57,712 nt of DNA from a virus (lineage: Duplodnaviria; Caudoviricetes): the IMG/VR virus record IMGVR_UViG_3300030107_004068, positions 1-57,712 of that record, one strand, 5' to 3'. The notes beneath the pieces were generated by a model that saw only the letters and a list, made by a program, of their open reading frames with translations, was not told the origin of the DNA and searched no databases. Shown one piece after another: positions 20,801 through 55,349 of this stretch. Within the stretch, counting starts at the first letter, position 1, and every line of letters starts with the position of its first letter. Made by a program: the position numbers and the translations under genes.

Positions 20801-23800
20801 AGTGAACTTTCCTCTAAGTCTATGGAAGAGTTTCAAGTTTCGACCAAGCTGGAAGGTTTTGGAATAGATACTTTTCTTGCCGATGAAGATGTCGGAACTC
20901 AAATTATAAAGAAAAGAAAGGCGCTTAAGGCTCGAGTCTACCGGGCAAAGAAAAAGCTGAACGAAGCTCGAGTTCAAGCGAGCAAGACAGCCAAAAAAGA
21001 CAAGCCAGAAACAGGCGAGCGCTGGACTTTAGAAGTCAGAAAGTCGAAGAAGAAAGACTATTTTGTTTTTGTAAACTCAAGCGACATGGCTCCGCTTTCG
21101 AGCATCTTTAGAAACAAAAATCTCTCTCAACTTCTTGATGAAAATGGTCTGTTTCTCAGTCGAATCATGGGCCCTAAGTGGACAAACAAGTTCTTTAGAA
21201 GTGTTTCGAACCAAGGAGATATGCCTGATGCATACGTGAAGCCTGGTGCGGCCCGAATAGCGATAGATTCTGACGGAGCTAATGCTATCGAATTGCTGAT
21301 GCGTAAGTTCTTTTTCGAAAAGGGCGGACAAATCGGTGCAATGCGTCCTCAGTTGCAAGAGTTGGGCGCACAGCTTTCTGGAATTTGGATGAGAATGAGG
21401 GGGTCTGCCGATCTTGTTGTTCCAGATATGGCTGTACGAGAGTTTTGGGACAAGACATTTAGCCCAGCAAAAATCCTTGCGAATGAAGCCATAGGAACCA
21501 CAAACAGAATCAACGGTTTGGTTCGAGTAGTTCGTATTTCTGGCGACATGGAGCAGGCAATTAAGGAAGAGCTACCTGCAAGGGCAGGTCGTAAACGTGA
21601 GTTTATTGGCGTTGAGAAAAACCCTGCAGTTGTTCGTCAAGCGCTTGGCCTGACTGACGACGTTAGAGAGGTCAACGCTGTAGAGCTTTACGCTCGTTCC
21701 GTTGGATACGCCGTTGGCGAGCATTTCAAGCGTCACGTCGGAGGCATGGAGTTTTCTAAGCTTACTGATTGGACGTTTGCTACAGCGTCTAGGGCCAGGT
21801 CTATTACTGAATCAGTAAACAAGACAATGGCATCGATTTTGGGTGTTCCGGTACTCAACAACAAAACCATTAAGGGTATTTTCGACGATAAAGAAAACGT
21901 CTTGAAGTTGAGTGACGCACAGGCATCGAGCCTTAGGGTGCATCTGAGACAGTTGGCGAATGAGCCTATTTCTGTTCGACGCCTTCCCGATGAGATTATT
22001 GATCCAAGTGCTGATCTTACGCAGATAACAAACGTTCAACTGAATAAAATCATCGAGATTATGAAGGATGTTGAGGGTGGGGCGTTTTCTAAGAGGACAC
22101 ATTACTCGGAAGCCATCTCAAGATCTCTTGGATACAGCGTTTTGAACGCGCTGAAGGCCGCGTCGAGGGACACCTTCGAAGCATCAGACTCTGGAAAGGC
22201 TCTGATGGAAAAATTCGACACATGGTTTAGCCTTGAAGACCCTTATTTGGACACCTTGGGGCCAATGCAGCGGTCTCTTCTTGATAAATGGCTAAAGAAA
22301 GTACAGGGCGTACAGAAAGATGTTCTTGAAATGATGCGAGTTGCCATCGCTGAAGATCCAGACATCGCCATTGATGCAGTTTTCGATAAGATTAGGCGAC
22401 AGTTGTTTCCTGATGTTGATCCATCTAAGGCCAAGAGGATCTTAGGATCGACTCCTCAGACGCTTATTCCAGGGAGGCGCAAGGCTTCTGATGCGAAGCA
22501 GGGCTGGTTCCAGTTCTTGTCGGAGTTTACTGCTGCAGAAGCAAAGAGAAACGCTGACGAATACGCAGCAGCAAAGCAAGACCTTGATTTGCCAGAATCA
22601 CCAGCAGTGCTTCGTGGCGAAGAAAAGATGTTTCCATCTGAGTATGAGTTTTTCGACATTAGTGGGATGTCCACAGAAGAAATTACTCAAATGATGGAAC
22701 AGGGCGGGGTATCCAAGCTCGAGTTTCTGTTGAAAAGAACATCTCTTGATGAGTTGGAAGATTTAATCAGTGACCAATCTAGGGGCGTTAACGGTCTCAC
22801 TGAAAGAGAGCGTCAAGCGTTCTCTGTATTGGGCACATACGCAAACAAAACACCAGACGAGTTGGCAAAGCTGGACAAGCTTGAGCGAGTAGAGCTTGCA
22901 GACGCCATAGAGAACGTTCGATTGAGCTTGTATGACCGTGCTCGATACATCGAGATGCGCGGTAAGAAAATTTTCTTGTCGTTGATGGGCGGTGCTGGAG
23001 AAACTCTAATTGGCAACATGGATTCAGCCCAGTTTGGTTGGTTTTACACCAAGTTCTACGAGGGCGGTAACGGCTGGATTGAAATGCTCGACTGGCTGGT
23101 CAACAAGGCTGCTAGAGAAGGCGGACTATGGGCCGAAAGAATACCTAAATACAGCCCAGCGCAAGCATTCCTAGAAATGATAGTGCGGATGCGGTCGTAT
23201 GAAATCATGGATGGCATGGCTGACGATATGATGCGTCATGGCGTGCCCGTTAAGATGCAAGATTTTGTACAGCCACGTCCACGCATTGGCCCGAAAGGCG
23301 ATGTTATTTCTATCGAGGCTGGAAACAAGTTTAATGAGCGCGTAAAGCACTACATTACCGAGATTCTTGAGTTTGGTGACATCGTTGTGCAGCGAATGCA
23401 CAAAGTCTATGACGAAGACGGAAACGTGGTTCTTGCAGACAACGGAAAGCCGCTTCTGGAGCCGGGTGGATATGAAGGATTCAGGGCACCAAAGCCAGAA
23501 TCGTGGGCACCAGGCGAATATAAAATCGGGATCAAGAGCGGTGAGAACTCACACGTACATGATCTTCAAGCATACGGTGTAGCCACAGAAATACTGGCCA
23601 GATTCGGGCATCGATTCAAGTCTAAGGACTGGGTTGAGATGACATTCCCAGATGGCAGCGTAGGATTTGTTCCAGCGCCGATGAAAAAGCACATTGAGAA
23701 GACTATTGATCGTCTTTCAAGCGTTGGCTGGGCTCGAGGCACGTTTTCAGCGCGAAGATTGACCCCCGCAAGGGTTAGGGCTCCGATGGGGATAGAGCCC

Positions 23801-25414
23801 GACTATTCAAGAGAAGTTCGCGCCAAAATGACAACGGCAAAAGCCATCGATACGATGGTGAACCTGTTTCCTGCGACATTTGCCAACATCAAGATGGGTG
23901 TCACGACTGGTATTGGTTTGCCAAACCCAGCATATTTTGTTGGCAACTTCATTGGTGGCGCGTTTCAGCTATTTACTGGCGTTGGCCCAATCGGTGTCGC
24001 TAAGACTGTGATGGATCCACGAAAGTGGAAGATGACCGCCGCTGTAATGTCCAGAATGTGGAAAGAAGGGCACTTCAAGCCTGGTAATCCCATCATTGTT
24101 GCAGCAGACGGATCAATCTACACTGCAGATCAGATTGCAGAGCTTGCCCATATTTATGGATTGAAGTCGAGCTTTATTTCTGCTGAAACACAACGGGCGA
24201 TGGCTGAAGATGTAGAAATCATGCTTAGAAAGCGTGATGCATCCTTGGTTGGCTTTTACAATCGTGGTGCTGATGGTGCTCGATGGTGGCAAAACAATCT
24301 TACAGAAACAGCCACAGCTATTGATAATTTTTATCGTGTTTCTGTTTTTGTTGAGGAGCTTGAAAAGGGTGCAAGCGCTCGCTCTGCAGCGTCTCTTGCC
24401 CGCAAGGTTGCGTTTGACTACGCAGAGTTGAGTGAGTTTGAAAAGGTTGTACTCCGTAATGTGATTCTGTTCTACAGCTACATGCGTAAGAACATGGATC
24501 TAACTATTGATACGCTTCTCACTGAGCCGTCTCGACTTCTTGGTCAACTTCGACTGATGAACGGGATGCAGCAAATAAACGTTCAAGACGACACAGAATT
24601 GGTCTTGAAGGACTACATTAAAGAGCGCCTTATTGGTGGGTTTAAAAGCTCAACAATAAATCAGCATGCAACAGAAGGTTGGATGCGAATAACGCCCCCG
24701 ATGCCAATCATGGATGCGATTAACTTGCCCATGAATATGGTTGGATGGGTTCAAGATGACCCAGAGGCGCAAAGGTATATGGTTACCAGGCTGGCTGCGC
24801 CCTGGATTCAGTATCCGTTTGTTGCGACATTGAAGGTCGATCCGTTCTATGCGAAGGGTATCGACATGTACAACCGCGTGCCGCCATGGCTTGTAGAGCT
24901 TGATAGGGTGCTTTTAGGCGGTATTTTGCACGACTTCCTTGATATTCAGAATAAGCCTAACTTTGACCCGTCAAGACGTTCGGTTGAGGGCGACTACTAC
25001 GAAGGCTGGTATCACGCGAATAATGGTGTGAACTGGTGGGTATATCGCAATTTGCTCCAAATTCCTGGGGCTGGCCGATCTATTGATACGATCACTTACA
25101 TGGATCGCGCAAACCTTCAGGCTATTGAAGGCGGACTGGCGCTGGCTAGGCTGCTCAGGAAGGGCGCAGAAACCGTTGGTCTCGCTGAAGAGCTTGAAGA
25201 TCCTTACGTGGGCATGGCAAAAGACACCATGGGTCCACGACCAGGGCTAACAGCGCAAGACGAATTTGCTGGATGGCTTGGCTTCAAACCGACCGAATTG
25301 CCCACAGAAGAGGCTGCAGTTAATAAAATAATTAAAGAATGGGTTAAAGAGGCGAAGCGCCAACCCGGAATTATGCGTCAATCTGACTGGCGTAGACCTA
25401 TTAAACGCCGATAA
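17822..25414 (+). CDS. Giant internal virion/ejection protein (2530 aa)
   Basis: Uninterrupted ORF. The C-terminal NPAYFVGNFIGG...IDNFYR...A..ARKVAFDY.ELS.FEK...VILFYSYMRKN pattern is typical of large podovirus ejection proteins. Confidence 0.75.
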   Translation: MAEPENMEDDAVLLESFKNFDFDEFDFSDKEELFSPESENLFSDITKEQAASIEEPMSGEMRSAGTTYTSYDVHSALVDISEQVREALKFQHPGASDDELTKMLDEKLWAVDQFPRHRSLPMPDAPSIDRFREFISDEPTWLAESPSKYMRGISEAIEAGKSDDEIESLIEKAPKSHMPDELFKVQGIAGAFRSALGPRLIKASAGSKTLKTPEMRWSQRRQSARDFDKIIKEQGKLEAMKMAWESNLAMPEEEAKEIGLISDKMLGEERESFWGRAVEDRDDEGFFIPAGLKDIPGLVKRGFTKLGVQDVFAPLFLDEEDYEQYKKEAKMLTPTEGWETVVRTVWNEKDKGKSAEEIKSDVQEQLYATFLMNSYSDLPSSVRLDPPSADILIKYAAKNPQVANDKTRPGLARLVRAANAGGATKADLQKALMSVPFGQLPIEIWRGNVKSLSGIVDKIYEGADKSIEAISESGGLEARELEKDFTDLMLTTEERDGEIYVVESGIGQLLRMVGMATETVAEADISIPGLEWAAITPASRDFYYAWGIRDANTSYLARILANTSLGEVGFSRHLTDEALARGYDQADPIYRMYAYLGLGLDFLVPWEKYHVSAAIRPVRAVHRGYKANKLVGMPGFRAQAFLAGMSPTVYSYINKSSERVSKSSYSLQQRLGKSPDISDIKEALAKTGDDILTYNERWLASKLVEKMEGKKPLSYDKAIDEIAVSAKTDVFETVGDVAENIVRHIMDSPDGGSLLRNLPWQFRREIDDIILASGADPSLVREAVKAYMGVSRRTHLAALEVLMRKGDPDTQLLRASDEYQAVLKQVNDLLDEGDITADQVPVLMALLENRAYTLAADEAVTSIAEPVDFFKKVKIRRTKKAVDDAQPSKTSDLLDIEKRFKSTQKDVSDFEVAVEDFQKVVSGKDDLDKQLRSVNNKIDKLTKKILGDDYVELEKGLTLDLDDIEADNAQRLRASQVGTEKQKKDLSALLEKQSELSSKSMEEFQVSTKLEGFGIDTFLADEDVGTQIIKKRKALKARVYRAKKKLNEARVQASKTAKKDKPETGERWTLEVRKSKKKDYFVFVNSSDMAPLSSIFRNKNLSQLLDENGLFLSRIMGPKWTNKFFRSVSNQGDMPDAYVKPGAARIAIDSDGANAIELLMRKFFFEKGGQIGAMRPQLQELGAQLSGIWMRMRGSADLVVPDMAVREFWDKTFSPAKILANEAIGTTNRINGLVRVVRISGDMEQAIKEELPARAGRKREFIGVEKNPAVVRQALGLTDDVREVNAVELYARSVGYAVGEHFKRHVGGMEFSKLTDWTFATASRARSITESVNKTMASILGVPVLNNKTIKGIFDDKENVLKLSDAQASSLRVHLRQLANEPISVRRLPDEIIDPSADLTQITNVQLNKIIEIMKDVEGGAFSKRTHYSEAISRSLGYSVLNALKAASRDTFEASDSGKALMEKFDTWFSLEDPYLDTLGPMQRSLLDKWLKKVQGVQKDVLEMMRVAIAEDPDIAIDAVFDKIRRQLFPDVDPSKAKRILGSTPQTLIPGRRKASDAKQGWFQFLSEFTAAEAKRNADEYAAAKQDLDLPESPAVLRGEEKMFPSEYEFFDISGMSTEEITQMMEQGGVSKLEFLLKRTSLDELEDLISDQSRGVNGLTERERQAFSVLGTYANKTPDELAKLDKLERVELADAIENVRLSLYDRARYIEMRGKKIFLSLMGGAGETLIGNMDSAQFGWFYTKFYEGGNGWIEMLDWLVNKAAREGGLWAERIPKYSPAQAFLEMIVRMRSYEIMDGMADDMMRHGVPVKMQDFVQPRPRIGPKGDVISIEAGNKFNERVKHYITEILEFGDIVVQRMHKVYDEDGNVVLADNGKPLLEPGGYEGFRAPKPESWAPGEYKIGIKSGENSHVHDLQAYGVATEILARFGHRFKSKDWVEMTFPDGSVGFVPAPMKKHIEKTIDRLSSVGWARGTFSARRLTPARVRAPMGIEPDYSREVRAKMTTAKAIDTMVNLFPATFANIKMGVTTGIGLPNPAYFVGNFIGGAFQLFTGVGPIGVAKTVMDPRKWKMTAAVMSRMWKEGHFKPGNPIIVAADGSIYTADQIAELAHIYGLKSSFISAETQRAMAEDVEIMLRKRDASLVGFYNRGADGARWWQNNLTETATAIDNFYRVSVFVEELEKGASARSAASLARKVAFDYAELSEFEKVVLRNVILFYSYMRKNMDLTIDTLLTEPSRLLGQLRLMNGMQQINVQDDTELVLKDYIKERLIGGFKSSTINQHATEGWMRITPPMPIMDAINLPMNMVGWVQDDPEAQRYMVTRLAAPWIQYPFVATLKVDPFYAKGIDMYNRVPPWLVELDRVLLGGILHDFLDIQNKPNFDPSRRSVEGDYYEGWYHANNGVNWWVYRNLLQIPGAGRSIDTITYMDRANLQAIEGGLALARLLRKGAETVGLAEELEDPYVGMAKDTMGPRPGLTAQDEFAGWLGFKPTELPTEEAAVNKIIKEWVKEAKRQPGIMRQSDWRRPIKRR

Positions 25415-26384: not shown

Positions 26385-28277
26385 ATGGGTGACTTTTATA
26401 ATCGTGATGGCGGCGCCCTAACGACAACAACCATTACAGCCACAACAATTACCGCTGATGATCTTGAGGTTGATAGCGGGACGCTGTCTATTGATGAAAC
26501 CAACAACCGTGTTGGCATGGGCACGACCGCCCCAGGAACACAGCTTCAAGTTGAAAGCAATACTCCGTATGTCACACTGAAGAACGACACTTCGGAAAAT
26601 ACTGCTGGTGGCTGTGAGTCAAAGATAATCTTTGAGGACCATGCGAACGTTTCTCTTGGCCAAATTGAAGTAAGCCACAGCGGTTCATCGGATGACACCA
26701 AAGGCAAGATGATCTTGTCTACCCACACTGGTTCGTCGCTGACTGCCGCAATCACCATTAATGACGCTCAAAAGGTGACGGCTGCTGGTGACGTACAAGT
26801 CACTGGTGACATCATTCTTGATGATGGTGGCTCGCTAAAAGAGGCTGGCGGCACTGCGGCAATTACTTTTGATGGTTCTGGCCACGTTACTAAGATAGGC
26901 CAAGACACACATACCTCTGGTCAGTTCTTGAAGTGGGACGGCTCTAAGGCTGTTTGGGACGCCGTCGCTACTGGATCAAGTGCTGCTGACGATATTACCG
27001 CTGGCGATGCCGCAGTTACTATCGCAACCACCACCGGAAACATCACACTTGACGCTCAAGCGGGCGATGCTGACATCATCTTCAAGGGTACAGACGACAC
27101 CAGTGATATTACCGCACTGACTCTTGACATGTCAGAAGCTGGTGCAGCATCTTTCAACGCTGCCGTCACTGTAGGTACAGACCTTACAGTTACTGGTGGT
27201 GACGTATCATACGGGAACGGACAAGACGCAACCCTCGCTGTAGCCGAAACGAGTTCAGGTACAGACGGTCGTGATCTTACGATTTCTGCTGGCTCTGCTC
27301 CTGCGGGAGCAACCAACCAGAACGGTGGTGACCTTCTCCTAAAATCGGGTGGTGGCGACGGAACTGGAACGTCTATGATTGCGTTCCACACGAAGGTCAA
27401 TGGAACAGACGCCGCCGCAGAGCGTATGCGGATTCATACAGACGGTAACGTTGGTATCGGGACCAACGCGCCAAGCCAGATTCTTCAAGTAGCGTCCGCT
27501 GCTCCAATCCTTGTGGTTCAAAACACAACGAATGAGCACACTGACGGAGGCGCTGAATCTAAGGTTCTCTTTGGCGACCACGCCGGAAACGCATTGAGTC
27601 AGGTTGAAGGGTCTCACTCAGGTTCTTCAGACGACGCTAAGGGTCAGTTCCGAGTCTCGACTAACAATGGGTCGGGTATGCAACTGGCGATGAGTATTGA
27701 CGATAGTCAAAACGCAGTATTTGCTGGTGACCTCACAATCGATGGCGGTGACGCCACATTGGGTACCGCTGGGAACACAACAGCTACAACGATTCAAGTA
27801 GTTACGAACACCAGCACAAATGTTGGTAAGTCTCTGACCATTGCAGCGGGATCTACCACTACCGGCGCGAACAATCTAAACGGTGGAGACTTAATCCTCA
27901 AGTCTGGTGGTGGTGACGGTACAGGTACTTCAGCAATGCAGTTCCACACTAAGATTAGTGGTGCAGACACTGCTGCTGAGCGCATGCGTATCAACACAAA
28001 CGGTAATGTCGTCATCAATGGATCAACGGCACACGCTGCATCGCTTGCTCTCGATGGTGCGGCTGCTGCGGTGGCACTGAAAGAAATGGCTAATGCTCCA
28101 GCAGACACGGCGGCATTTGGGCAACTTTGGGTAAAGACTGCAACTCCAAATGAGTTGTACTTCACAACAGATGCTGGCGACGACATTCAGATTACGTCAG
28201 GCACGGCTACTGCTGGCGGTGGATCCGTTACTAACGATGACGCTAACCTTATCTTAGCCATTCAATCATTCTTATAG
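26385..28277 (+). CDS. Tail fibre protein with internal duplications
   Basis: Gly/Thr/Ser-rich, with NRVGMGTTAP, GNVGIGTNAP and ERMRI fibre repeats and GQFLKWDGSK. Confidence 0.8.
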   Translation: MGDFYNRDGGALTTTTITATTITADDLEVDSGTLSIDETNNRVGMGTTAPGTQLQVESNTPYVTLKNDTSENTAGGCESKIIFEDHANVSLGQIEVSHSGSSDDTKGKMILSTHTGSSLTAAITINDAQKVTAAGDVQVTGDIILDDGGSLKEAGGTAAITFDGSGHVTKIGQDTHTSGQFLKWDGSKAVWDAVATGSSAADDITAGDAAVTIATTTGNITLDAQAGDADIIFKGTDDTSDITALTLDMSEAGAASFNAAVTVGTDLTVTGGDVSYGNGQDATLAVAETSSGTDGRDLTISAGSAPAGATNQNGGDLLLKSGGGDGTGTSMIAFHTKVNGTDAAAERMRIHTDGNVGIGTNAPSQILQVASAAPILVVQNTTNEHTDGGAESKVLFGDHAGNALSQVEGSHSGSSDDAKGQFRVSTNNGSGMQLAMSIDDSQNAVFAGDLTIDGGDATLGTAGNTTATTIQVVTNTSTNVGKSLTIAAGSTTTGANNLNGGDLILKSGGGDGTGTSAMQFHTKISGADTAAERMRINTNGNVVINGSTAHAASLALDGAAAAVALKEMANAPADTAAFGQLWVKTATPNELYFTTDAGDDIQITSGTATAGGGSVTNDDANLILAIQSFL

Positions 28278-35563: not shown

Positions 35564-35794
35564 CCCCACTTGAGTCGTGACTCTCAAGTGGGGCCAGGTT
35601 TAATCCACGGGATTAAAATGATCTCAGCCTATCCGAGATCAAAATGTTAAACCACCACCAAGTGTGTGGATTAAATCTAAAACGCCCTATCACGACTAAG
35701 GCCCCTGCACCCCTCTGACGGTGGGAACCAATTCAACTATTTTTGCTCTTCGTACAAGAGTTGAACTAGCGTGTCAGAGGGGACAGGGGGGACA
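35564..35794. ncRNA. Candidate structured RNA/DNA element with several consecutive stems
   Basis: Stems at 35564-74/35583-93, 35599-608/35666-75, 35619-41 and 35702-19/35773-89. Confidence 0.4.
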
Positions 35795-36469
35795 TTAGCC
35801 ATCGAAGGTTTCAGCAATATCTTCGATGTCGTTTTTCGGCTTAGCCTTGGCAGTGACCTTTTTGGGCGTGTCTTCGTTGGCGCCTTCAATAGCTTTTCCT
35901 GCCATTGCGGCGATAAACTGCTTCATCAAGTCTTTAAGCTCATCATCGTTAGATGAGTTCTGCTTGTTTGTAAGAGCTTCAATCAGTTCCTTGTTACTGT
36001 TTGACACGTCAACGTGAACGTCTACTGCTGGCACACCGTTAGTGTAGCGAAGATCTTTCTCGTTGCGGGCATCGACCCACTGACATGCTGCAACAATAGA
36101 CTCTACGCCGTACTCTGATCGAATATCAACCTCGTAGTCGTAGAGCTTCCACTCACCGTTAGGCTGCGAGTTGTTGATGTTTTTAACCATTGCAGCAAGT
36201 GTCGCATGCATCATGGTGTTCCAAAGGTCTTCATCAACAGCGTTCAGTGTTCCAGCCAGTGTCCAGCGTTGAGTTTTTAGCTTTTTTCGATAATCGGACC
36301 ATTCCTTCTTTGTCTTCTTATCAACCATTTCGTCATCAAAAACTGACCTCATAATCGACAATAGATGACTTGATTGAATGATCTTTTTTGGCCCATCGCT
36401 CGTTCCTGCAGTTTCGTGGAACATTTTGCTCCGTGAACGCTGTGATGCTGCTTGATCGATAAGTGACAT
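35795..36469 (-). CDS. Hypothetical protein downstream of RecT
   Basis: 224 aa with AGGAG RBS. Confidence 0.65.
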   Translation of the reverse strand: MSLIDQAASQRSRSKMFHETAGTSDGPKKIIQSSHLLSIMRSVFDDEMVDKKTKKEWSDYRKKLKTQRWTLAGTLNAVDEDLWNTMMHATLAAMVKNINNSQPNGEWKLYDYEVDIRSEYGVESIVAACQWVDARNEKDLRYTNGVPAVDVHVDVSNSNKELIEALTNKQNSSNDDELKDLMKQFIAAMAGKAIEGANEDTPKKVTAKAKPKNDIEDIAETFDG

Positions 36470-36477
36470 GAAATCTC

Positions 36478-37368
36478 CTACTCAGTGAAGTCTTGTTCTG
36501 GTTCTGGAAGTCCGTTGTCTTTAGTTTTTTCAACTAAATCTTTTACGCTGGACTTCTTTCGTCTTTTTGGTTTTGGTTTTTCAGTAACATCAATGACGCT
36601 ATCGTCATCAATAATAGCTTCGTTGCTCATTGAATGTATGTCATTGCCTACTGTGTTGTCAATGACGCCAACATCTTCAAAGTCAGATTTTATGTCATGA
36701 TCAAGAACCGCTGTTGTTTGGGGTGTAAGCGGCAAATACTTACAGATTCGCCTGATTACGGTTTTTCGCCACATTTCCTCTGTGTGCTGTGACCAAGGGC
36801 CAGAATCTGGGCTTCGCGAGTTAGATCGAATCTTGTCGATTTGATCCTTACGCATGACCTCTACTTGGCGTTGCCCATCTTTGTAGTAGCAAACAGCATA
36901 GGCAAGCTTGAGTCCACCAGGGTCGTCATAGTTGACTTTGTGCTTTAATACTTCACCATCATCAAGATCAAAGTAATGCTCGAACTCATCGTTTTCATGA
37001 ACAACACGAGCAACAAAATGAGCAACCTCTCCAGACCGCTTCACCAAGTCCATAAGTCCCGTATATTCGATCCAAAGTTCAGCATCGTATGACTTGGCGC
37101 GCTTGTTCCACATGGGCACAAGAGATGCTCGATGCAGGACGCCGCCAGCTACGAGATTAAGCTCACATGCTTTGGCTAAGGCAAGGTAAACGGAACCAGG
37201 AGTGCATTGGGCAAGACGCTCATTCTTAGCAGCCTCGAACATTGCCACCCGGATAATTCGATCTACATCAGTTCCCTTTGGTGCGATCTTTACAAGGCTG
37301 TCTCGCTTGGCGCCTAAAAACTCATTTAGAGATGTAAGTTGGTCGCGTCTACTAATTGCTGTCGTCAT
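36478..37368 (-). CDS. recT: RecT-family ssDNA annealing protein
   Basis: LAQCTPGSV..AL, LVP, Y.GLMDLVKRSGEV, VVHENDEF, GPW.QH.EEMWRKTVIRRICKYLPL. Confidence 0.9.
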   Translation of the reverse strand: MTTAISRRDQLTSLNEFLGAKRDSLVKIAPKGTDVDRIIRVAMFEAAKNERLAQCTPGSVYLALAKACELNLVAGGVLHRASLVPMWNKRAKSYDAELWIEYTGLMDLVKRSGEVAHFVARVVHENDEFEHYFDLDDGEVLKHKVNYDDPGGLKLAYAVCYYKDGQRQVEVMRKDQIDKIRSNSRSPDSGPWSQHTEEMWRKTVIRRICKYLPLTPQTTAVLDHDIKSDFEDVGVIDNTVGNDIHSMSNEAIIDDDSVIDVTEKPKPKRRKKSSVKDLVEKTKDNGLPEPEQDFTE

Positions 37369-38323
37369 CTTTAGGCTCCATGATGCGAAGAATTCTGTTG
37401 GAAGATCCCTCACTAACGTATTGTTGGTAAAGTTCTGGATGCTCGGCTGAAAATCTTTTCTTATCGAACAGTTGCCGTGGCCTAGTTGGCTTCCATGTGG
37501 CAATACCGGAAATGCCAATAGACTCACCAATGCAGTTTCTCAATTGATTTTCAAGCTCGTTTTTCTTTTCTGTGAGCGCCTTGTGTTCATCCCTAATTTT
37601 GAGAATTTTCTCGTATATCTCTCTCTCAGCGACACTGGCTGGGCGCAATGTTTCTTCTTTTACTCGAGGGTTTAGTTTCCCAAGGGCCTCACGGCATAGG
37701 TCTGTTCCATCAACTGGCGGTGGAGTTTCAGTTTTTACGTAGGAGTCCCACCATTGCTCGGCCACTGTAAGTATTTGCTCGCCAAGCTCTTTGTCTCTTT
37801 CGATTCGATAAACTCGAAAATCGTCCAAACCAAACAACGTTGCAATATCCCAAAATGGAGCATCAAATATCTCCATGTAGACTCGCATCTGTACCTCTAC
37901 GTCTAAAGGCACATCTGTTGTTCCAGTCTTACCCCAGCCTTTCCTCATCCTTCTGGTCTTCGCGTCCATCCCAAATGAAACGCCGTTGTGTTCAACCATA
38001 GCGTCTGGCGTGCCAAAGATGCGTGGTCGAGTCGGATGCCAAGTCAATCCCCTCTCCCAAAGGCGACATCCCTCTCCCAAATGGAGTTCATATAGCTCAA
38101 ATACGTACTTCTCCATAACTCGACCACGCATCAAAATTGCATTGTCTTGATCTTCAGATTTGAACAGGCCAGTTTTTTCCGACCAGAGCTTGAAAAGGCT
38201 GTTTTCGAAACATCCAACTCTGTCTTCAATGCTTGCTGATGCGAGCATGATTGATGCGACATCTGTTCCGCCAAGGCCTTTTCTACGTTCAGCTAGCCAA
38301 GCCTCGCGCTCTTCTTGATTCAT
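37352..38323 (-). CDS. YqaJ-like viral exonuclease
   Basis: WLAERRKGLGGTD, LWSEKTG, GTPDA, DAKT and VQMRVYM motifs; adjacent to RecT. Confidence 0.9.
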   Translation of the reverse strand: MNQEEREAWLAERRKGLGGTDVASIMLASASIEDRVGCFENSLFKLWSEKTGLFKSEDQDNAILMRGRVMEKYVFELYELHLGEGCRLWERGLTWHPTRPRIFGTPDAMVEHNGVSFGMDAKTRRMRKGWGKTGTTDVPLDVEVQMRVYMEIFDAPFWDIATLFGLDDFRVYRIERDKELGEQILTVAEQWWDSYVKTETPPPVDGTDLCREALGKLNPRVKEETLRPASVAEREIYEKILKIRDEHKALTEKKNELENQLRNCIGESIGISGIATWKPTRPRQLFDKKRFSAEHPELYQQYVSEGSSNRILRIMEPKDDDSN

Positions 38324-38344
38324 TGGTTGTTTTCTCCTTTTGGT

Positions 38345-38373
38345 AGAATACTTTCTTGAGCGATGTGTGTCAA
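38345..38373 (-). promoter_or_regulatory. Sigma70-like promoter for yqaJ-recT
   Basis: TTGACA-17 nt-TATTCT on the minus strand. Confidence 0.7.
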
Positions 38374-38390
38374 GGAGCCACACCCCTTTG

Positions 38391-38419
38391 TGGACAAAAG
38401 TTGTCCGGTGCGCTATTTT
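38391..38419 (+). promoter_or_regulatory. Divergent promoter with overlapping GGACAA-N3-TTGTCC palindrome
   Basis: TGGACA-17 nt-TATTTT upstream of the HTH gene. Confidence 0.4.
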
Positions 38420-38439
38420 TGTTTGACAAGGTGTGTCTA

Positions 38440-38679
38440 ATGGTCATCGAAGACTATCGAAAAAGCTTGCCTGGGAAGAGCACTCGAGCTTCATTTGTTG
38501 ATTGGCTCAACAATGAACTGAACCAGTTCGATTTGAGCCTGAGTCTTGGATATCTTAGGGATCTTGAGTATGGAAGGAAAACGCCATCCTTGCCTTTAGC
38601 TATAGGTATCGAAAAAGCTACAGGTGGTGTAGTATCTGTAAGAGATTGGCCTGGTTTAAAGTCAGGCCTTCGTTCATAA
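38440..38679 (+). CDS. Cro/XRE-like HTH regulator
   Basis: LSLGYLRDLEYGRKTPSLPLAIGIEKATGGVVSVRDW. Confidence 0.8.
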   Translation: MVIEDYRKSLPGKSTRASFVDWLNNELNQFDLSLSLGYLRDLEYGRKTPSLPLAIGIEKATGGVVSVRDWPGLKSGLRS

Positions 38680-38692
38680 ATGGAGTAGGACA

Positions 38693-38932
38693 ATGAGTCT
38701 TAAGGAAAAAGTTGAAGCAATGAAGGTTGTCACCCGCCAGCGTGGGTCAGGGCATGGGTACAATTCACAGCAGGTATACGGCACGCTGTATGCCTACATT
38801 GCAGAACTCGAAGCAAAGCTTGCTGCTGCAGACAAGCCAGCGCCCGCTAAAAAGGAGCCTGCTAAAAAGGCCCCGACAAAAAAGCCTGCCGCTAAAAAGG
38901 CTCCAGCGAAGAAAACGCTGAAAAAGAAGTAA
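38693..38932 (+). CDS. Small protein with histone-H1-like PAKK tail
   Basis: AGGA RBS; KPAPAKKEPAKKAPTKKPAAKKAPAKK. Confidence 0.65.
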   Translation: MSLKEKVEAMKVVTRQRGSGHGYNSQQVYGTLYAYIAELEAKLAAADKPAPAKKEPAKKAPTKKPAAKKAPAKKTLKKK

Positions 38933-39163
38933 TTAAGCTTCAATAGGCTCTTTAAGGGTTGCTTCAATAATCTTGAAAGCAGCCCAGCTTTGCTGTGTCT
39001 CGATGTGTTCATTTATCTTTTCAATGATGTTGATTTGAGTCATCGCTGTGATCACATGGTCCCGTTCTGAGTCGAACACTTCCATGTTGTCTCCGACTAT
39101 CTCTACAATCCAGTTATCTGGAACTGTCCAGCAGTCTCGTATTCGTTCTATGTCATTCATCAA
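38933..39163 (-). CDS. Hypothetical protein
   Basis: Coupled ORF at the end of the helicase operon. Confidence 0.5.
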   Translation of the reverse strand: MMNDIERIRDCWTVPDNWIVEIVGDNMEVFDSERDHVITAMTQINIIEKINEHIETQQSWAAFKIIEATLKEPIEA

Positions 39164-47256: not shown

Positions 47257-48668
47257 CCTGGTATCTCGTTCACAGTGCATCCAAGTTTTCTGTAGAACCG
47301 CGCTCGCTTCTTGTGCTTGTAGAACAAGCCCCTGCTGTAATCGACCAAGTCCACGACTATTGGTTGCTTCTTGTTTTCTGCTGTTCGCATGATTCGACCA
47401 ATACGTTGCTGCACTCGACCCATAGCGTTCGTTGGCGTGGTCAAGATGAGAGTATCGAGCCCTGGTAGGTCTAAGCCCTCGTCTGCGATTGTGGTGGCAA
47501 AGATCACCTTCACCTCTCGAGACTCGGCAGCAGCCATAGTTTCTGCTCGCTGCTTCTTACTCATCTTTCCAACAAGAGCAGCAGAGCTAGCTCCTCGGTC
47601 TGCAACCTTCTCTGCCATATCTATGCAGTGCTGCACTCGATCTGACAAAACCAGGATCTGTCGATCGTCTTCCAGAAACCCATCGATAAGGTCGAGGATC
47701 TGATTGTTTCGGCCTTCGTCTGCACACATCTTGTTCACCAGCTTTGGCCAATCCATGTCGCCTTCTGGATACCATGATGTGATTTGAAACCTCACTTCTG
47801 GTGCGAGCACTCGACCTTCTTCGATCAGTTGCCTCGTTGTGATCCGAACCAACTCATTGCCGAAGTGCCAGTACAGTATCTTGCTGAGCCCGTCAGGCCT
47901 GTCTGGTGTTGCGGTCAGCCCCATCCGCACAGTCGCTGGCATTGCCATCATCACATGGCTGAAGCTGTTTGCTGGAATGTGGTGAGCCTCATCAACGATG
48001 CATACTCCAAACTGCTTTCCCCAGTCATGCAACTCATCCCATCGTTCTTTGGCAAGGGATTGAATCATTGCGATTACGATCTGCCCTGAGTCGTCTTTCT
48101 TTCCTCCGCCCCAGATAGTGACGTGTGGAGCTTCACCGTCCTTTGTTGTCAACTGAGCCTTGATACGATCTTCCCACTGCTTGGCAAGGTCATTGGTGTG
48201 TACCAATACGATTGTTCGTGTAGCGAACTTCGTCATGGCTCCAAGCCCTATCATTGTCTTTCCTGCGCCACATGGTGCGATTACCAACCCCTCCTGCGCC
48301 TTCACCAGTTCTTCCACGGCCTCTTGCTGGTATGGCCTGAGCTTTACCCCTTCCGCCATCTTTAGTCGGCTGTGGCTGCTATCGGTAAGCTCTGGGTACG
48401 ATGTCTTCCATGTGTACTGTAGGCTTTCTGAAAGTGTGACACCCCTGGGTATCATCAACCCGCCGCCCCACTTATGCCACAGTGGAATCGTCTTGCACGC
48501 ATACACATGTTGGTCTGGAATCTGCACCCACTTGCCCTTGTTTCTGAGAGCCATCGCTTGGTGGTACTCAGGGTTGGGGCATCGAAACTTGCTTTTAATC
48601 TTATCGATGTGTGGTGAGGCTGGAGGCAAGAACTTCGCTCCGCCAACCGCGCAGATTGACTCAATCAT
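47253..48668 (-). CDS. Superfamily 2 DEAH helicase
   Basis: LRPYQ, PCGAGKT, VDEAHH, GLTATP.R.DG, EGLDLP and QRIGRIMR. Confidence 0.92.
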   Translation of the reverse strand: MIESICAVGGAKFLPPASPHIDKIKSKFRCPNPEYHQAMALRNKGKWVQIPDQHVYACKTIPLWHKWGGGLMIPRGVTLSESLQYTWKTSYPELTDSSHSRLKMAEGVKLRPYQQEAVEELVKAQEGLVIAPCGAGKTMIGLGAMTKFATRTIVLVHTNDLAKQWEDRIKAQLTTKDGEAPHVTIWGGGKKDDSGQIVIAMIQSLAKERWDELHDWGKQFGVCIVDEAHHIPANSFSHVMMAMPATVRMGLTATPDRPDGLSKILYWHFGNELVRITTRQLIEEGRVLAPEVRFQITSWYPEGDMDWPKLVNKMCADEGRNNQILDLIDGFLEDDRQILVLSDRVQHCIDMAEKVADRGASSAALVGKMSKKQRAETMAAAESREVKVIFATTIADEGLDLPGLDTLILTTPTNAMGRVQQRIGRIMRTAENKKQPIVVDLVDYSRGLFYKHKKRARFYRKLGCTVNEIPG

Positions 48669-48764: not shown

Positions 48765-50087
48765 CTACTCTTCATTCAGAGAAACGTTGCAAAACCAAAT
48801 CTCTTCTTCAGCATCCCACTGAAGCATACTGTGCCCAGGCTCCCCGTCTGTTGGGACAAGGTAGACACCAGCGTTCTTCATTAGGATTGTTCGCTCAGCT
48901 ACGGTTTCTGTTCCATCATCATTGATAAGCTTGACGTAGACTACATCTTGTGTTTCTTCGTCACCTTCATCACCAGCATCACCCTCGTCTGCATACGACC
49001 ATGGGATATCATCGTCGATATCTGGCTCTGGCTGCTTGAGTCGGGGCAGGCCATCTGCGATGCTCGGCTCGTCTTCAGAGTCTTCGACTACTTCCTCGGC
49101 GTGGTTTACCTTTCGTCGAATCACCGTCTCTACCTTGTCGTTCTCGACAATCTCGACGGGCACGTCTTGATACCAGCCAGACACTGGGATGCCATCGATG
49201 CGCTTAGTCTTCTTCTTCCATCCAAGCGCCTTCATGGTTGCGCCAATCGATAGCTTGACCTTGTGAGACATGTCCTGCTCTGTTTCAGGAATCTCGATGT
49301 CATTTGCAATGAAGTCATAGCATTTGATAGCAAGCTCGAATGATGTGATTCCATTGTGAAGGTCTACATCATTAACGATACGAGCAGACAGTTCTTCGTC
49401 TGGCTTGACTCCGCTTCCCTTTCGCTTCTTCCTTGGGCTCTTTACAACCTCTGGCTCCTCAGACGTGAACTGCTCCATGTCATCGAACACATCATCAAAG
49501 TCGTTGGACTCTTCTTCAGCCTGTGATTCAACAGGAGGCTCTGCAGTAGTATTGAACGACCAATCCTTTGGTGGATACCAGCGATAGGCTCGAACACCAT
49601 TAGTCATCTGGCGACGACGCTCCCATCCCAGATTGCGTAGAGCTACACCGACAGCCTGTTCGAGTGTGCGATACCCAACGGTTGCATTCTTGTGAAGCAT
49701 GAAGCGATCGATCAGATTGGAGATCTCCATCCCAATAGATCCCTCGTCCAGCAAAGTATCAAGAAGCTCGGAATACTCACTGCCAAGGTTGTCCAGATCA
49801 GGACCAGACTTCTTTGTGGTAGCAGACTCTGTGTCTTCTGAACCGTTGTTGGCAGCAACAATCAGTCCCATCTCAACTTCCTCAAAGGTGAGAGTCTTCC
49901 CATAGGCTGCAGCCATGTAGACCAGAACATCAGCAATCGAGTGTTTGGTTGCTTTGTTTCCTCTGTCCATCAATCCTTTGCCGTTCTGGGTAAACCGACC
50001 GGTAAGGATGTTGTCGTTCATAGCTGCCAGATAGACGCTGTATGCGCCAACTGCCTTCTTAATCTTGTCAGCAGTTTCCATTGTCAC
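48765..50087 (-). CDS. Protein with two VapE-C-terminal-like winged-helix repeats and no ATPase
   Basis: VGVALRNLGWERRRQMTNGVRAYRWY and IGATMKALGWKKKTKRIDGIPVSGWY resemble the helicase C-terminus. Confidence 0.65.
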   Translation of the reverse strand: MTMETADKIKKAVGAYSVYLAAMNDNILTGRFTQNGKGLMDRGNKATKHSIADVLVYMAAAYGKTLTFEEVEMGLIVAANNGSEDTESATTKKSGPDLDNLGSEYSELLDTLLDEGSIGMEISNLIDRFMLHKNATVGYRTLEQAVGVALRNLGWERRRQMTNGVRAYRWYPPKDWSFNTTAEPPVESQAEEESNDFDDVFDDMEQFTSEEPEVVKSPRKKRKGSGVKPDEELSARIVNDVDLHNGITSFELAIKCYDFIANDIEIPETEQDMSHKVKLSIGATMKALGWKKKTKRIDGIPVSGWYQDVPVEIVENDKVETVIRRKVNHAEEVVEDSEDEPSIADGLPRLKQPEPDIDDDIPWSYADEGDAGDEGDEETQDVVYVKLINDDGTETVAERTILMKNAGVYLVPTDGEPGHSMLQWDAEEEIWFCNVSLNEE

Positions 50088-51066: not shown

Positions 51067-51296
51067 TGTTGATTCCTTTCTTTGTTTTTGATTCGATGTT
51101 CTGCGCTTCTTGCGAGCTTGTGTAGTCCTTGTCGTTGTGCTTCTAAGAGCACCTCCTTTGGGTCATATCCATCCATCACAAGTGAAGTCCATGGGACTGT
51201 TCTCCTGTGTAGTCTTTCGTCAGTAAGATCCATTGCCTTTGTCTTCATTTCATTTGCCTTAGTAGATTGGTGTGACAATTGAAAAGCCGTGCTCAT
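51063..51296 (-). CDS. Hypothetical protein
   Basis: Short ORF in the operon; start uncertain. Confidence 0.45.
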   Translation of the reverse strand: MSTAFQLSHQSTKANEMKTKAMDLTDERLHRRTVPWTSLVMDGYDPKEVLLEAQRQGLHKLARSAEHRIKNKERNQQ

Positions 51297-52680
51297 GTGG
51301 GTTTACCTCCCACTCGCTCAATGGTGACCTTCCGTTCGCGGACATGATTGCTCGGTTGGCTCTGTAGACATCTCTGAGGTTGAGCGCGTCAGGCTCTGGC
51401 CCAAAGTCTAAGCCCCAGTGTTCACACCCTGAAAGCAGCTTCTTTCTTGCCTCTTCGTACTTAAGGCCCTCTCTTGGTGCGAGCGTCAGGTGCAGGCCCT
51501 CAAGTTGCTTAAGGGCGTCATCGTATGTGCCCATCTTAAGGTGTGCCACCCATGCGGCCATTGTGCCCCTGGGAATATCAAAGACTTTGGCTGCAACCTT
51601 TGTCCCTACAAGCTGTGCATATCTTGCGGCGTATGGCCTGAGCGCCAGTTCTCCTTGCGATGCGGTGATGGCCCGGTAGTAGCCATAGGTTTTTGCGCCA
51701 TACTCAAAGTAAGAACATCCTTTGTACTCAGGCTGCTCTCTGCACAGCAGGTCAAGAACAATCCCGTGGGCAACAACGAATGTCATTGTGACGAACGGTG
51801 TGCCGTGCTGGTTTCCGTTTCTGCTGTGGTATCCAAGGAGCCCGCCTTGAAGTATTCCCATCGCAGCGTCAAGGTCTTGAACGGTTCCCCCAACCCTAAT
51901 CCTTCCACAGTTGAGGGCTTCAACCGCTTCCTCTTGAATCATTCTTGACATTAAGCATTCGCGCAGAACCTCCAACCTCGACACGCATGTTCCGAGATAG
52001 CTAATCTTTCCGCCTTTCGTTACCGCGTTACGCAAAGCCATGTCAGAAACTGTGCGATGTTTCCCGTTGCGCCTTGCTTCATGCCACTCTCTTAGAAGAG
52101 ACTGCTCTCCAATGTCGATGAGCTTGCGGGGCTCGAATGGTCCGTTCATCATCATGCGTGCAGCAATCTCATTTCCAGTAGACCTGAACTGTTTTGCGTA
52201 CATCTTTCGCAGGTTGCGAGGCAGCTTGGACACCACCTTACCGTTGGCCCGCTTATACTCTCGGCCCTTCAGCATTGTGACTGAGAGAATCAATGGCTGG
52301 CTCTTGTCTGCGTTGTTGATGACATTGACCAGCGTGTTGATATTTGGCATGGTCAAGCCGCCGCAGAAGTCTACGTGTGCCATGTTGTAATGCACGTTTG
52401 GGTTCTTTACTACCGACCCAAGTTGTCCATGCATCACCTTCATGCCTGGAAACCTCTGCCTACACTTGTCAACGCTGTCTTTCGACATGTCCACTGCGGT
52501 GATTTTATCGTGGTCGATACCCCAACCATCGAGAGCAGATAGGTCGCCACCGTCACCGGCAAGGACAAGGATGCCATCGTTGCTCATGTTGAGCCAGTTT
52601 GCGAAGTAGAACATCTGGTGCCACATCCTGCACCTGGTGATTTTCTTTCCAGGGCTGTCGCCCTTGTATGTACTGCTCAT
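51259..52680 (-). CDS. SAM-dependent methyltransferase-like N-terminal domain plus C-terminal HTH-like segment
   Basis: ILVLAGDGGD..ITAVDMS..V..CR...VMHG...HVDFCG Rossmann pattern; TKVAAKVFDIPRGTMAAWV. Confidence 0.55.
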   Translation of the reverse strand: MSSTYKGDSPGKKITRCRMWHQMFYFANWLNMSNDGILVLAGDGGDLSALDGWGIDHDKITAVDMSKDSVDKCRQRFPGMKVMHGQLGSVVKNPNVHYNMAHVDFCGGLTMPNINTLVNVINNADKSQPLILSVTMLKGREYKRANGKVVSKLPRNLRKMYAKQFRSTGNEIAARMMMNGPFEPRKLIDIGEQSLLREWHEARRNGKHRTVSDMALRNAVTKGGKISYLGTCVSRLEVLRECLMSRMIQEEAVEALNCGRIRVGGTVQDLDAAMGILQGGLLGYHSRNGNQHGTPFVTMTFVVAHGIVLDLLCREQPEYKGCSYFEYGAKTYGYYRAITASQGELALRPYAARYAQLVGTKVAAKVFDIPRGTMAAWVAHLKMGTYDDALKQLEGLHLTLAPREGLKYEEARKKLLSGCEHWGLDFGPEPDALNLRDVYRANRAIMSANGRSPLSEWEVNPHEHGFSIVTPIY

Positions 52681-54269: not shown

Positions 54270-54433
54270 TCACCTCCTTCGCTGTTGATAGATTGCAGGA
54301 GAACATCAAAGGTTTCCTGGCTGCCGACGATGCCACGCTCGTCCTCAGTCAAGTGATGGAAGTTTCCCTCTACAGCCTCAAGCAGGTAGCAGAGGAGCGC
54401 GTTCTTTATCTGGTCAAGCTCTTGAGTAGTCAT
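54266..54433 (-). CDS. Small hypothetical protein
   Basis: First ORF after the promoter at 54469-54497. Confidence 0.5.
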   Translation of the reverse strand: MTTQELDQIKNALLCYLLEAVEGNFHHLTEDERGIVGSQETFDVLLQSINSEGGE

Positions 54434-54468
54434 GGGTTGTTTCTCTCTAAGTGTTGTGGTGAACACTA

Positions 54469-54497
54469 AATATAGTCTTTGTTGTCGAGGGTGTCAA
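54469..54497 (-). promoter_or_regulatory. Sigma70-like early promoter
   Basis: TTGACA-17 nt-TATATT with an AT-rich UP region. Confidence 0.75.
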
Positions 54498-54649
54498 CAG
54501 GTTTTATTAAATAGTTTGACCTTACATTAATAATCTTTGACCCGACATGTGATTGCTGGACATGGTTAGCGTGGGCATTGCGGACCATATAAGGGTAGCT
54601 GAGTGGGGGGATAATGTCAATAACTTTCTGCTTGGTCATGGTTTTGTCC

Positions 54650-54850
54650 AGGGTAGTGGGACAGTTGGCCCTACAGGGGGACAGGCTAAAATGTAGGTTC
54701 TACCTGCTTTACTTTACTGTCCTTACTTGTCCCTACCTTAGTAGTCTAATAGGTAAATAAGTATGGGGTTATTATAATAATGTGTGTAATAATAGGTACG
54801 CAAAGTACTTTATAGGGGGGAGGGGGGGACAGGGGGACAGGTAGGGACAG
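54650..54850. other. Putative replication origin (GGGACAG iterons around an AT-rich core)
   Basis: GGGACAG at 54658, 54678, 54826, 54834 and 54844; inverted TGTCC copies near 54718 and 54728; AT-rich 54740-54812. Confidence 0.55.
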
Positions 54851-54854
54851 AGCC

Positions 54855-55349
54855 CTATTCGTCGTCTATGTCCACTATAGGCTCTATGACTCCAGTAGGA
54901 TGACATAGAAGGTACAGACGAATGCCCTCAGACTCCCAATGCTTGCTCAGTATCGTTGACCAACCATGCAGCAAGTCTAAGGCATACCTCTTGATACCCG
55001 CTGTGCCCTTCATCCAGTTAAACACCCAACGCTCTTTGCTGCCTACTAATGATGCGAAACTACCTAAATCGCCCTCCCGGCCCAGACTCTCCTCAATCTC
55101 GCGATACAATAGGTACAGACGTACACCGCATGCCTGAACCTCGGACTTCAATAATGAACCATCAAGATGAACCGATACATCCTCAAAGAACTGCTCCCGC
55201 TCCTGGGGACTCGCAACACCAGTCGTCCGCTGAACCAACCGAAGAGCACGCAACCAAGGCCTGCCGCCTGAAAAATGTCCGTCGCCTCGCCTCATTAAAT
55301 GGCCTCCTCGGTTTGACACATAACGTATTGTCCCAAAACCAAATGCCAT
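54855..55349 (-). CDS. HTH-containing protein
   Basis: SFASLVGSKERWVFNWMKG; C-terminus resembles the 42229 HTH protein; start uncertain. Confidence 0.55.
   Translation of the reverse strand: MAFGFGTIRYVSNRGGHLMRRGDGHFSGGRPWLRALRLVQRTTGVASPQEREQFFEDVSVHLDGSLLKSEVQACGVRLYLLYREIEESLGREGDLGSFASLVGSKERWVFNWMKGTAGIKRYALDLLHGWSTILSKHWESEGIRLYLLCHPTGVIEPIVDIDDE

Follow-up and report, generated by a model that had tools for sequence, protein, structure and literature searches.

The DNA analysed here (hereafter the window) is a stretch of 57,712 nucleotides (nt) from a tailed phage of the class Caudoviricetes (IMG/VR record IMGVR_UViG_3300030107_004068), and comprises a complete phage genome or a large portion of it. 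One of its minus-strand genes, at 48765..50081, encodes a protein that is almost certainly a motor-less derivative of a VapE/Rep initiator-helicase: the two end domains of the helicase have been retained, the winged helix has been duplicated, and the product is under selection. The domains are known ones, but the conserved architecture in which they are combined is new. From its sequence features, this helicase paralogue probably assists or regulates the initiation of DNA replication. An earlier note on the window had proposed an ATPase-less paralogue of VapE with a duplicated winged helix, a proposal that sequence profiles and fold comparison both back. The roles that it suggested for the protein, a dedicated origin-binding initiator or loader, or a dominant-negative regulator, are inferences.

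Homology to the resident VapE helicase

The window carries a VapE (PF05272) replicative helicase of the parent type (Table 1). Two segments of the paralogue had been said to match the C-terminus of this helicase, and both matches were recovered. With BLASTP, residues 140-170 of the paralogue align with helicase residues 390-420 (14 of 31 positions identical, E 2e-4), and residues 273-318 align with residues 388-433 (12 of 46 identical, E 1e-3). We also used hhalign to compare alignments of the single paralogue-family domains with a 39-sequence alignment of the helicase. The first winged helix (WH1) matches the entire helicase C-terminal domain (CTD, residues 358-425) over 66 columns, with a probability of 98.1 % and E 7.7e-14. 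The second one (WH2) matches the same place over 36 columns (32.9 %, E 4.6e-4), and its score of 30.4 is reached by none of 60 column-shuffled helicase profiles (mean 14.1, maximum 27.6). The two winged helices also match each other (86.5 %, E 4.6e-6). When a hidden Markov model of WH1 was run against all six-frame open reading frames (ORFs) of the window of at least 40 amino acids (aa), it found both winged helices of the paralogue and the helicase C-terminus (E 2.2e-13), all remaining ORFs lying at E > 1. WH1 is thus a C-terminal winged helix of the kind that marks VapE/SaPI-Rep proteins (SaPI, Staphylococcus aureus pathogenicity island), and WH2 is a weaker match to that kind. The recognition helices of the paralogue and the helicase differ in sequence.

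The N-terminus had likewise been likened to the pre-ATPase domain of the helicase. This resemblance was missed by BLASTP and is weak at the profile level: hhalign places the N domain (target 13-69) on helicase residues 60-118, in the register that had been proposed, with 17 % probability and E 1.4e-3. The score of 27.2 is reached by none of 60 shuffled profiles, the highest of which comes close at 25.5. The fold is more telling. When the N domain was modelled alone (84 residues, predicted local distance difference test (pLDDT) 91.9), all but one of the top Foldseek matches were the six chains of PDB entry 7pds, with TMq 0.63-0.69 and root-mean-square deviations of 1.6-2.6 Å, while every entry other than 7pds had a TMq of at most 0.38 (the E-values, 0.28-0.9, are weak, the query being short). 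The identification of the paralogue N-terminus with the helicase pre-ATPase domain is therefore supported mainly by the modelled fold, which is that of a Rep-type N-terminal domain. Compared domain by domain with the helicase at 39774, as the earlier note had advised, the N and winged-helix profiles align and the N domain superposes on 7pds.

Other structural comparisons covered the whole protein. Against the PDB, the four-domain model gave nothing at E <= 0.001 with Foldseek, 7pds appearing at rank 15; in the viral structure library BFVD, the named top matches are 'Virulence-associated E' or COG5545 proteins. A complex prediction of the VapE helicase with paralogue residues 1-175, run without controls, returned a score of 0.00, which speaks neither for nor against binding.

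The motor that joins these end domains in the helicase is missing. As the earlier note had remarked, no Walker A motif is present: neither the classical form nor the VapE variant GxxGxxK[ST] occurs in any of 66 family members. The resident helicase carries the variant GPQGARKS. Searches of the paralogue against Pfam returned no family at E <= 1 (PF05272 and Rep_3 included), and those against PHROG and NCBIfam returned no match. As the PF05272 ATPase is absent, the paralogue is a derived copy and not an enzymatic member of the VapE family. Ten distant family members searched against the same kind of libraries gave only sub-threshold winged-helix matches to the C-termini of helicase PHROGs. A PDB sequence search with the family profile found nothing at E <= 10, and tblastn of the paralogue against 50,697 phage records (from which the window's own record was possibly excluded) found nothing at 1e-3. 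In a scan of genome contigs with the family alignment A1, none of 13 pattern matches was confirmed, so that neither a prophage copy nor a clue to the host was obtained. No such protein is described in the main texts of the literature searched on VapE origins, iterons, ATPase-less helicase paralogues and COG5545 derivatives.

Domain layout and start codon

A single ORF fills 48765..50087 on the minus strand and has 440 aa when counted from a GTG at 50087. The true start is probably the ATG at 50081, two codons inside this ORF, because the version of the protein in the metagenome collection is the 438-aa form beginning there and a Shine-Dalgarno sequence, GGAGG, lies at the right distance (7 nt 5' of this ATG).

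The model of the paralogue shows four confidently folded domains with acidic disordered linkers between them (Table 1), linkers whose acidity had been noticed earlier. In the AlphaFold2 (AF2) model, two units of three helices and a hairpin each (residues 96-169 and 229-305, pLDDT >90) have winged-helix structural matches and are spaced by a disordered acidic linker of 55 residues, at the end of which GVKPD is kept across the family. The isoelectric point (pI) of the whole protein is 4.45. The wings keep conserved arginines and lysines, as in the helicase CTD. The N domain and winged helices of the layout first proposed stand, but that layout had left out the C-terminal beta domain, the LPRL and DD[IL]PW motifs and the ATG start. 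The beta domain has no profile match to the other domains of the paralogue or to the VapE helicase, is matched by no other ORF of the window, and found no usable match in the protein atlas.

Table 1. Features of the motor-less helicase paralogue, its parent-type helicase and the surrounding replication module (positions in the window).
Feature	Position	Strand	Remarks
Motor-less helicase paralogue gene	48765..50081	-	438 aa from ATG at 50081
N-terminal domain	49836..50081	-	residues 1-82 (438-aa numbering); folded like the N-terminal domain of VapE/SaPI-Rep proteins
WH1 (winged helix 1)	49566..49799	-	homologous to the helicase C-terminal domain
Acidic disordered linker 2	49401..49565	-	net charge -8; pLDDT <50; ends in a basic KKRKGSGVKP patch
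WH2	49167..49400	-	diverged second winged helix; invariant GATMK..GW motif
Acidic disordered linker 3	48957..49166	-	net charge -19; pLDDT <50; carries LPRL and DDDIPW
LPRL motif	49038-49049	-	in linker 3
DDDIPW motif	48999-49016	-	in linker 3; residues 356-361 of the 438-aa form
C-terminal small beta domain	48768..48956	-	five strands; acidic ...EE tail; confident in the model
VapE (PF05272) replicative helicase, parent type	39774..41111	-	PF05272 1.3e-78; phrog_1313 DNA helicase 1.5e-96; 7pds_A E 8.5e-40
VapE helicase N-terminal domain	40707-40991	-	roughly residues 41-135
VapE helicase CTD winged helix	39837-40040	-	residues 358-425
Candidate origin or operator	54658..54850	.	GGGACAG iterons flanking an AT-rich stretch; putative link to the paralogue
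Putative primase	41098..42120	-	340 aa; zinc-finger and TOPRIM-like motifs by eye; overlaps the helicase start
SF2 (ResIII/DEAH) helicase	47253..48668	-	PF04851 1.3e-32; PF00271 4.4e-17; directly downstream of the paralogue
SSB with N-terminal zinc ribbon	46597-47280	-	227 aa
RecT	36478-37530	-	
YqaJ-type exonuclease	37352-38383	-	
ORF of 205 aa, no assigned function	between YqaJ-type exonuclease and VapE helicase	-	
DUF2589 paralogues, adjacent pair	44068-44673 and 44683-45177	-	inside the replication module

A conserved family with three modular forms

Relatives of the paralogue form 40 clusters at 90 % identity, all from marine metagenomes or viromes and none of them named; a scan of 1.84 billion representatives yielded 31 matches, which added more distant members. 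The family comes in three forms: proteins of about 440 aa with the order N+WH1+WH2+C, proteins of about 370 aa with N+WH2+C, and proteins of 170-270 aa with N+WH1 and, frequently, an acidic tail. Common to all three is a core of the helicase N domain and one winged helix of the helicase type.

Many residues are invariant across the 40 clusters, and they lie in all four domains. The absence of the catalytic core is what would be expected of a decaying, functionless remnant of a duplicated helicase gene, but this explanation is virtually excluded because the conservation data contradict it: the frame is open in 40 clusters and 28 loci, and many invariant residues, four confident folds and newly gained conserved motifs have to be accounted for.

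These motifs lie in linker 3. LPRL is invariant, and the P and W of DD[IL]PW are nearly so, in 19 full-length members; more broadly, LP[RKD][LV] occurs in 46 of the 66 family members and an acidic PW motif in 41. Both appear to be docking-type motifs gained together with the acidic linkers. The single-stranded DNA-binding protein (SSB) of the phage has the canonical acidic tip ...DEEIPF, and DD[IL]PW may imitate a tail of this type, as DDDIPW consists of an acidic run followed by [IL], P and an aromatic residue. SSB tips act through a free C-terminus, however, and DDDIPW is internal, about 77 residues from the end of a protein that terminates in ...NEE. Among the short forms, P0064 (a 248-aa N+WH1 metagenome member) has ...SDDYLPPF, which resembles an SSB tip, at its actual C-terminus, and the tails of others end in an acidic ...EE or carry DPW or TPFD motifs.

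The replication module

The structural genes of the window run on the plus strand up to about 35.6 kb, and a replication and recombination module occupies the minus strand from about 35.8 kb on. We surveyed 28 IMG/VR loci, 24 with long or intermediate forms of the paralogue and four with distant short forms (L025-L028). The paralogue gene lies in the same replication module in all of them. The primase, VapE helicase, SF2 helicase, SSB and RecT/YqaJ are its module partners in 26 of the 28 loci. The VapE helicase is likewise present in 26 (L013 and L019 end before its expected position), and the putative primase, which has no Pfam match, is directly upstream of VapE in 26 of 28. Every long-form locus has the SF2 helicase directly after the paralogue. 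L025-L028 instead read paralogue, about 1 kb, primase, VapE and SF2 helicase; as gene order changes in these loci, we rejected the adjacency of the SF2 helicase as a sign of a specific partnership. The paralogue is steadily associated with the primase-helicase set, not with the SF2 helicase as such.

Gene order and linear motifs both bear on a role in which the paralogue would be a protein hub with no sequence-specific DNA binding, its winged helices and N domain serving as protein-binding modules and its acidic DD[IL]PW and LPRL motifs, similar to an SSB tail, tethering the SF2 helicase, SSB, primase or host replisome proteins to one another. The placement of conserved linear motifs in disordered acidic linkers, the endings of the SSB (...DEEIPF) and of one short family member (...DDYLPPF), the very acidic composition of the protein and the adjoining SF2 helicase gene in all long-form loci would all suit such a hub. 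It is nevertheless improbable, given the internal position of DD[IL]PW, the loss of SF2 helicase adjacency in L025-L028 and the arginines and lysines that the wings keep in common with the helicase CTD.

Among the ORFs scanned (not every ORF against every library), no DNA polymerase was recognised, and for this reason the phage probably has to recruit host replication proteins.

Several other genes in and around the module were recorded. The zinc ribbon of the window SSB is NrdR-like and fused to the SSB in one ORF; in related loci, zinc ribbon (about 86-104 aa) and SSB (about 130 aa) are separate neighbouring ORFs. The DUF2589 pair occurs in only some related loci (L008, L009, L010). Small ORFs with no assigned function continue on the minus strand beyond the paralogue. 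A conserved ORF of 473 aa, 51259-52680 on the minus strand, is 85-89 % identical in several loci and has, by eye, methyltransferase-like glycine-rich and DFCGG motifs; searches against Pfam and PHROG gave it no match. The short-form phages have a small N6-adenine-methyltransferase-like ORF (NPPYG; L019 9576-9995, plus strand) directly upstream of the paralogue and overlapping its start. In the structural module, an ORF of 2530 aa (17822-25414, plus strand) has no PHROG match at E <= 0.001, and the large structural ORFs 5453-7354, 15020-16894 and 26385-28277 are likewise without matches. Reference libraries cover this phage lineage poorly.

A candidate origin or operator

The intergenic region 54270-54854 contains a cluster of iterons. 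Five exact copies of GGGACAG lie on the plus strand at 54658, 54678, 54826, 54834 and 54844, two degenerate copies lie on the minus strand at 54717 and 54727, and an AT-rich stretch (about 54740-54800) is located between them. Five of the 12 GGGACAG copies of the window are thus packed into 193 bp, and GGGACAG is the sole 7-mer of the window with five non-overlapping copies inside 250 bp. Clusters of GGGACAG are found at the syntenic place, after the homologue of ORF 54855-55349, in L002, L003, L005, L007, L008, L011, L014 and L015, and fewer copies are present in L009, L017, L018 and L020. Only phages with a WH2-bearing paralogue have such clusters; the repeats of the short-form phages are different ones and do not adjoin the paralogue gene. 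We rejected co-variation as a means of assigning the iterons to one winged helix, as the helicase recognition helix co-varies equally and the comparison is confounded by phylogeny. From the sequence, 54650-54850 is a plausible target for the paralogue, for the helicase winged helix, or for both.

The earlier note had stated that the C-terminal winged helix of P4-alpha/D5-type helicases binds the origin, which agrees with the SaPI Rep study (PMC9371898), where this domain recognises iterons on both sides of an AT-rich region. That study describes the Rep N-terminal domain as one tier of the hexamer and states the role of that domain to be unknown.

The same repeats could be read as operators. 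The paralogue would then be a transcription factor whose winged helices bind GGGACAG upstream of the leftward promoter and at a second pair of repeats (35780-35794), its acidic regions acting on RNA polymerase and its helicase ancestry being merely the source of a DNA-binding domain. Winged-helix domains are typical of regulators, and the iterons are directly upstream of a sigma70-like promoter (11-of-12, 54497->54469, minus strand) that reads into the minus-strand module, at the opposite end of which the second pair, GGGACAGGGGGACA, is found. Promoter-like sites in the region are however no commoner than in shuffled sequences (5 found, 5.6 expected), a purely transcriptional role would leave unexplained why the helicase N domain is retained in every family form, and the arrangement of iterons beside an AT-rich stretch is the layout described for SaPI origins in PMC9371898. 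We consider a transcription factor quite unlikely.

Other repeats of the window are listed here for completeness. Immediately beyond the stop of ORF 35795-36469, where the plus-strand structural genes give way to the minus-strand replication module, lies the second GGGACAG pair, GGGACAGGGGGACA (35775-35794). A 15-nt unit (GCCCGCTAAAAAGGA-like) is repeated five times in register at 38829-38929, in the gap between ORFs 38356-38679 and 39160-39777; translated on the plus strand, these copies would be rich in lysine, alanine and proline. Near the right end, two T/G-rich direct repeats of 34 nt (56519-56552 and 56945-56978) are 97 % identical and 426 nt apart, and two similar GC-rich palindromes (GGGGCGCGCGCGCG...) lie at 56620-56645 and 57612-57635. 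These direct repeats and palindromes may be regulatory or terminator elements of the early region.

A possible accessory factor of replication initiation

We tentatively favour, with a little less than even confidence, the view that the paralogue is an accessory replication-initiation factor, which binds the iterons or related sites and holds replication partners at the origin. Its two flexibly tethered winged helices would bind the GGGACAG iterons beside the AT-rich stretch (54658-54850), or close relatives of these repeats. The helicase-like N domain and the acidic motifs would grip partners that are normally contacted by the helicase N-tier and by SSB-type tails, and the C-terminal domain would also help to hold replication partners. 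Candidate partners are the primase, the VapE hexamer, the SF2 helicase, SSB and parts of the host replisome. The origin would be marked in this way, and the primase-helicase would be assembled or timed there, in a working mode that may be likened to that of papillomavirus E2 for E1, or to that of iteron-plasmid Rep initiators with tandem winged helices. Judged from the sequence, the outcome could be positive (a loader) or negative (a competitor).

A negative effect would make the paralogue a regulator that occupies the iterons or the docking surfaces of the helicase N-tier but does not unwind, and that limits initiation or sets its timing (to control copy number or the early/late course), or that inhibits the helicases of related phages infecting the same cell. 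Helicase domains minus the motor are the classical make-up of a dominant-negative protein, and the paralogue evolves faster than the enzymes of the module: in the same loci it is 46-49 % identical, while VapE reaches 73-79 % and the SF2 helicase 66-70 %. The helicase, moreover, has a winged helix of its own and could therefore load itself, as SaPI Reps do (PMC9371898). On the other hand, no related locus that extends far enough lacks the gene, its invariant residues in four domains fit a core function better, and the acquisition of a C-terminal domain and linear motifs speaks for partner recruitment more than for simple competition. We regard such a competitor as rather unlikely.

Several observations weigh against an accessory initiation factor as well. 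The lower conservation of the paralogue relative to VapE is one of them. A helicase able to load itself in the manner of SaPI Reps leaves a separate origin binder without obvious need, and winged helices also serve as protein-binding modules. WH1 (pI 5.8) and WH2 (pI 5.2) are not net basic, only their wings are, in a protein that is very acidic overall; binding of DNA or protein by the paralogue is itself inferred. The iterons are about 4.6 kb away from the paralogue gene and just upstream of the sigma70-like promoter, so the GGGACAG repeats could be operators rather than an origin. Finally, in exactly the phages that have GGGACAG clusters, the helicase CTD has an invariant recognition helix (EMRVGDIMRQLG), which differs in the others. 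The helicase therefore accounts for the iteron correlation no less well than the paralogue does.

A wider and unlikely extension of the accessory-factor view is that phages have repeatedly excised the motor from their own initiator-helicase to make a new class of replication factors, represented here by an E2-like, four-domain origin organiser. Its two winged helices would bridge iterons on both sides of the AT-rich region, the helicase-type N domain would nucleate the primase-helicase, and an internal mimic of an SSB tail (DD[IL]PW) would, with LPRL and the beta domain, recruit host replisome proteins to a phage in which no polymerase was recognised.

Comparison with known systems

The closest known counterparts are the SaPI Reps (Rep1 of SaPI1, PDB 7pds; PriRep5 of SaPI5, PDB 7ola), which are VapE-like (PF05272) and share their type of C-terminal winged helix with the paralogue. 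Unlike them, the paralogue has no ATPase tier and hence no hexameric motor; its winged helix is duplicated, its linkers are long and acidic, and its two linear motifs and C-terminal beta domain are new. Relative to the VapE helicase of the window, WH1 is homologous to the CTD while WH2 and the N domain align weakly at homologous positions; PF05272 is absent, the recognition helices are others and conservation is lower.

The Reps of iteron plasmids (RepA of pPS10, RepE of F, pi of R6K) have two winged helices per chain, bind direct iterons beside an AT-rich region and have no helicase activity. The paralogue resembles them in having two winged-helix domains in one chain, according to the AF2 model. 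Its winged helices are however split by the 55-residue acidic linker instead of being packed together, and it is helicase-derived, with no match to Rep_3 in Pfam (E <= 1) or in the PDB profile search (E <= 10).

Regulators of initiator-helicases are known elsewhere: papillomavirus E2 loads the SF3 helicase E1, and P4 gp-alpha has the regulator Cnr. P4 alpha carries a C-terminal origin-binding winged helix. The likeness to the role proposed here is conceptual: an SF3 initiator-helicase is directed or restrained at its origin by a DNA-binding protein that has a flexible hinge and no motor. Neither E2 nor Cnr is a paralogue of its helicase.

Significance

Many phages, satellites (SaPIs, P4) and genomic islands replicate by means of primase-helicases of the VapE/D5/Rep type, whose origin loading and regulation are poorly understood. 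A natural protein made of the N domain and winged helices of such an enzyme is a ready-made tool for separating docking and DNA recognition from the motor. Pfam, PHROGs and NCBIfam lack an entry for its family, although the gene belongs to the conserved core of a widespread uncultured group of marine phages.

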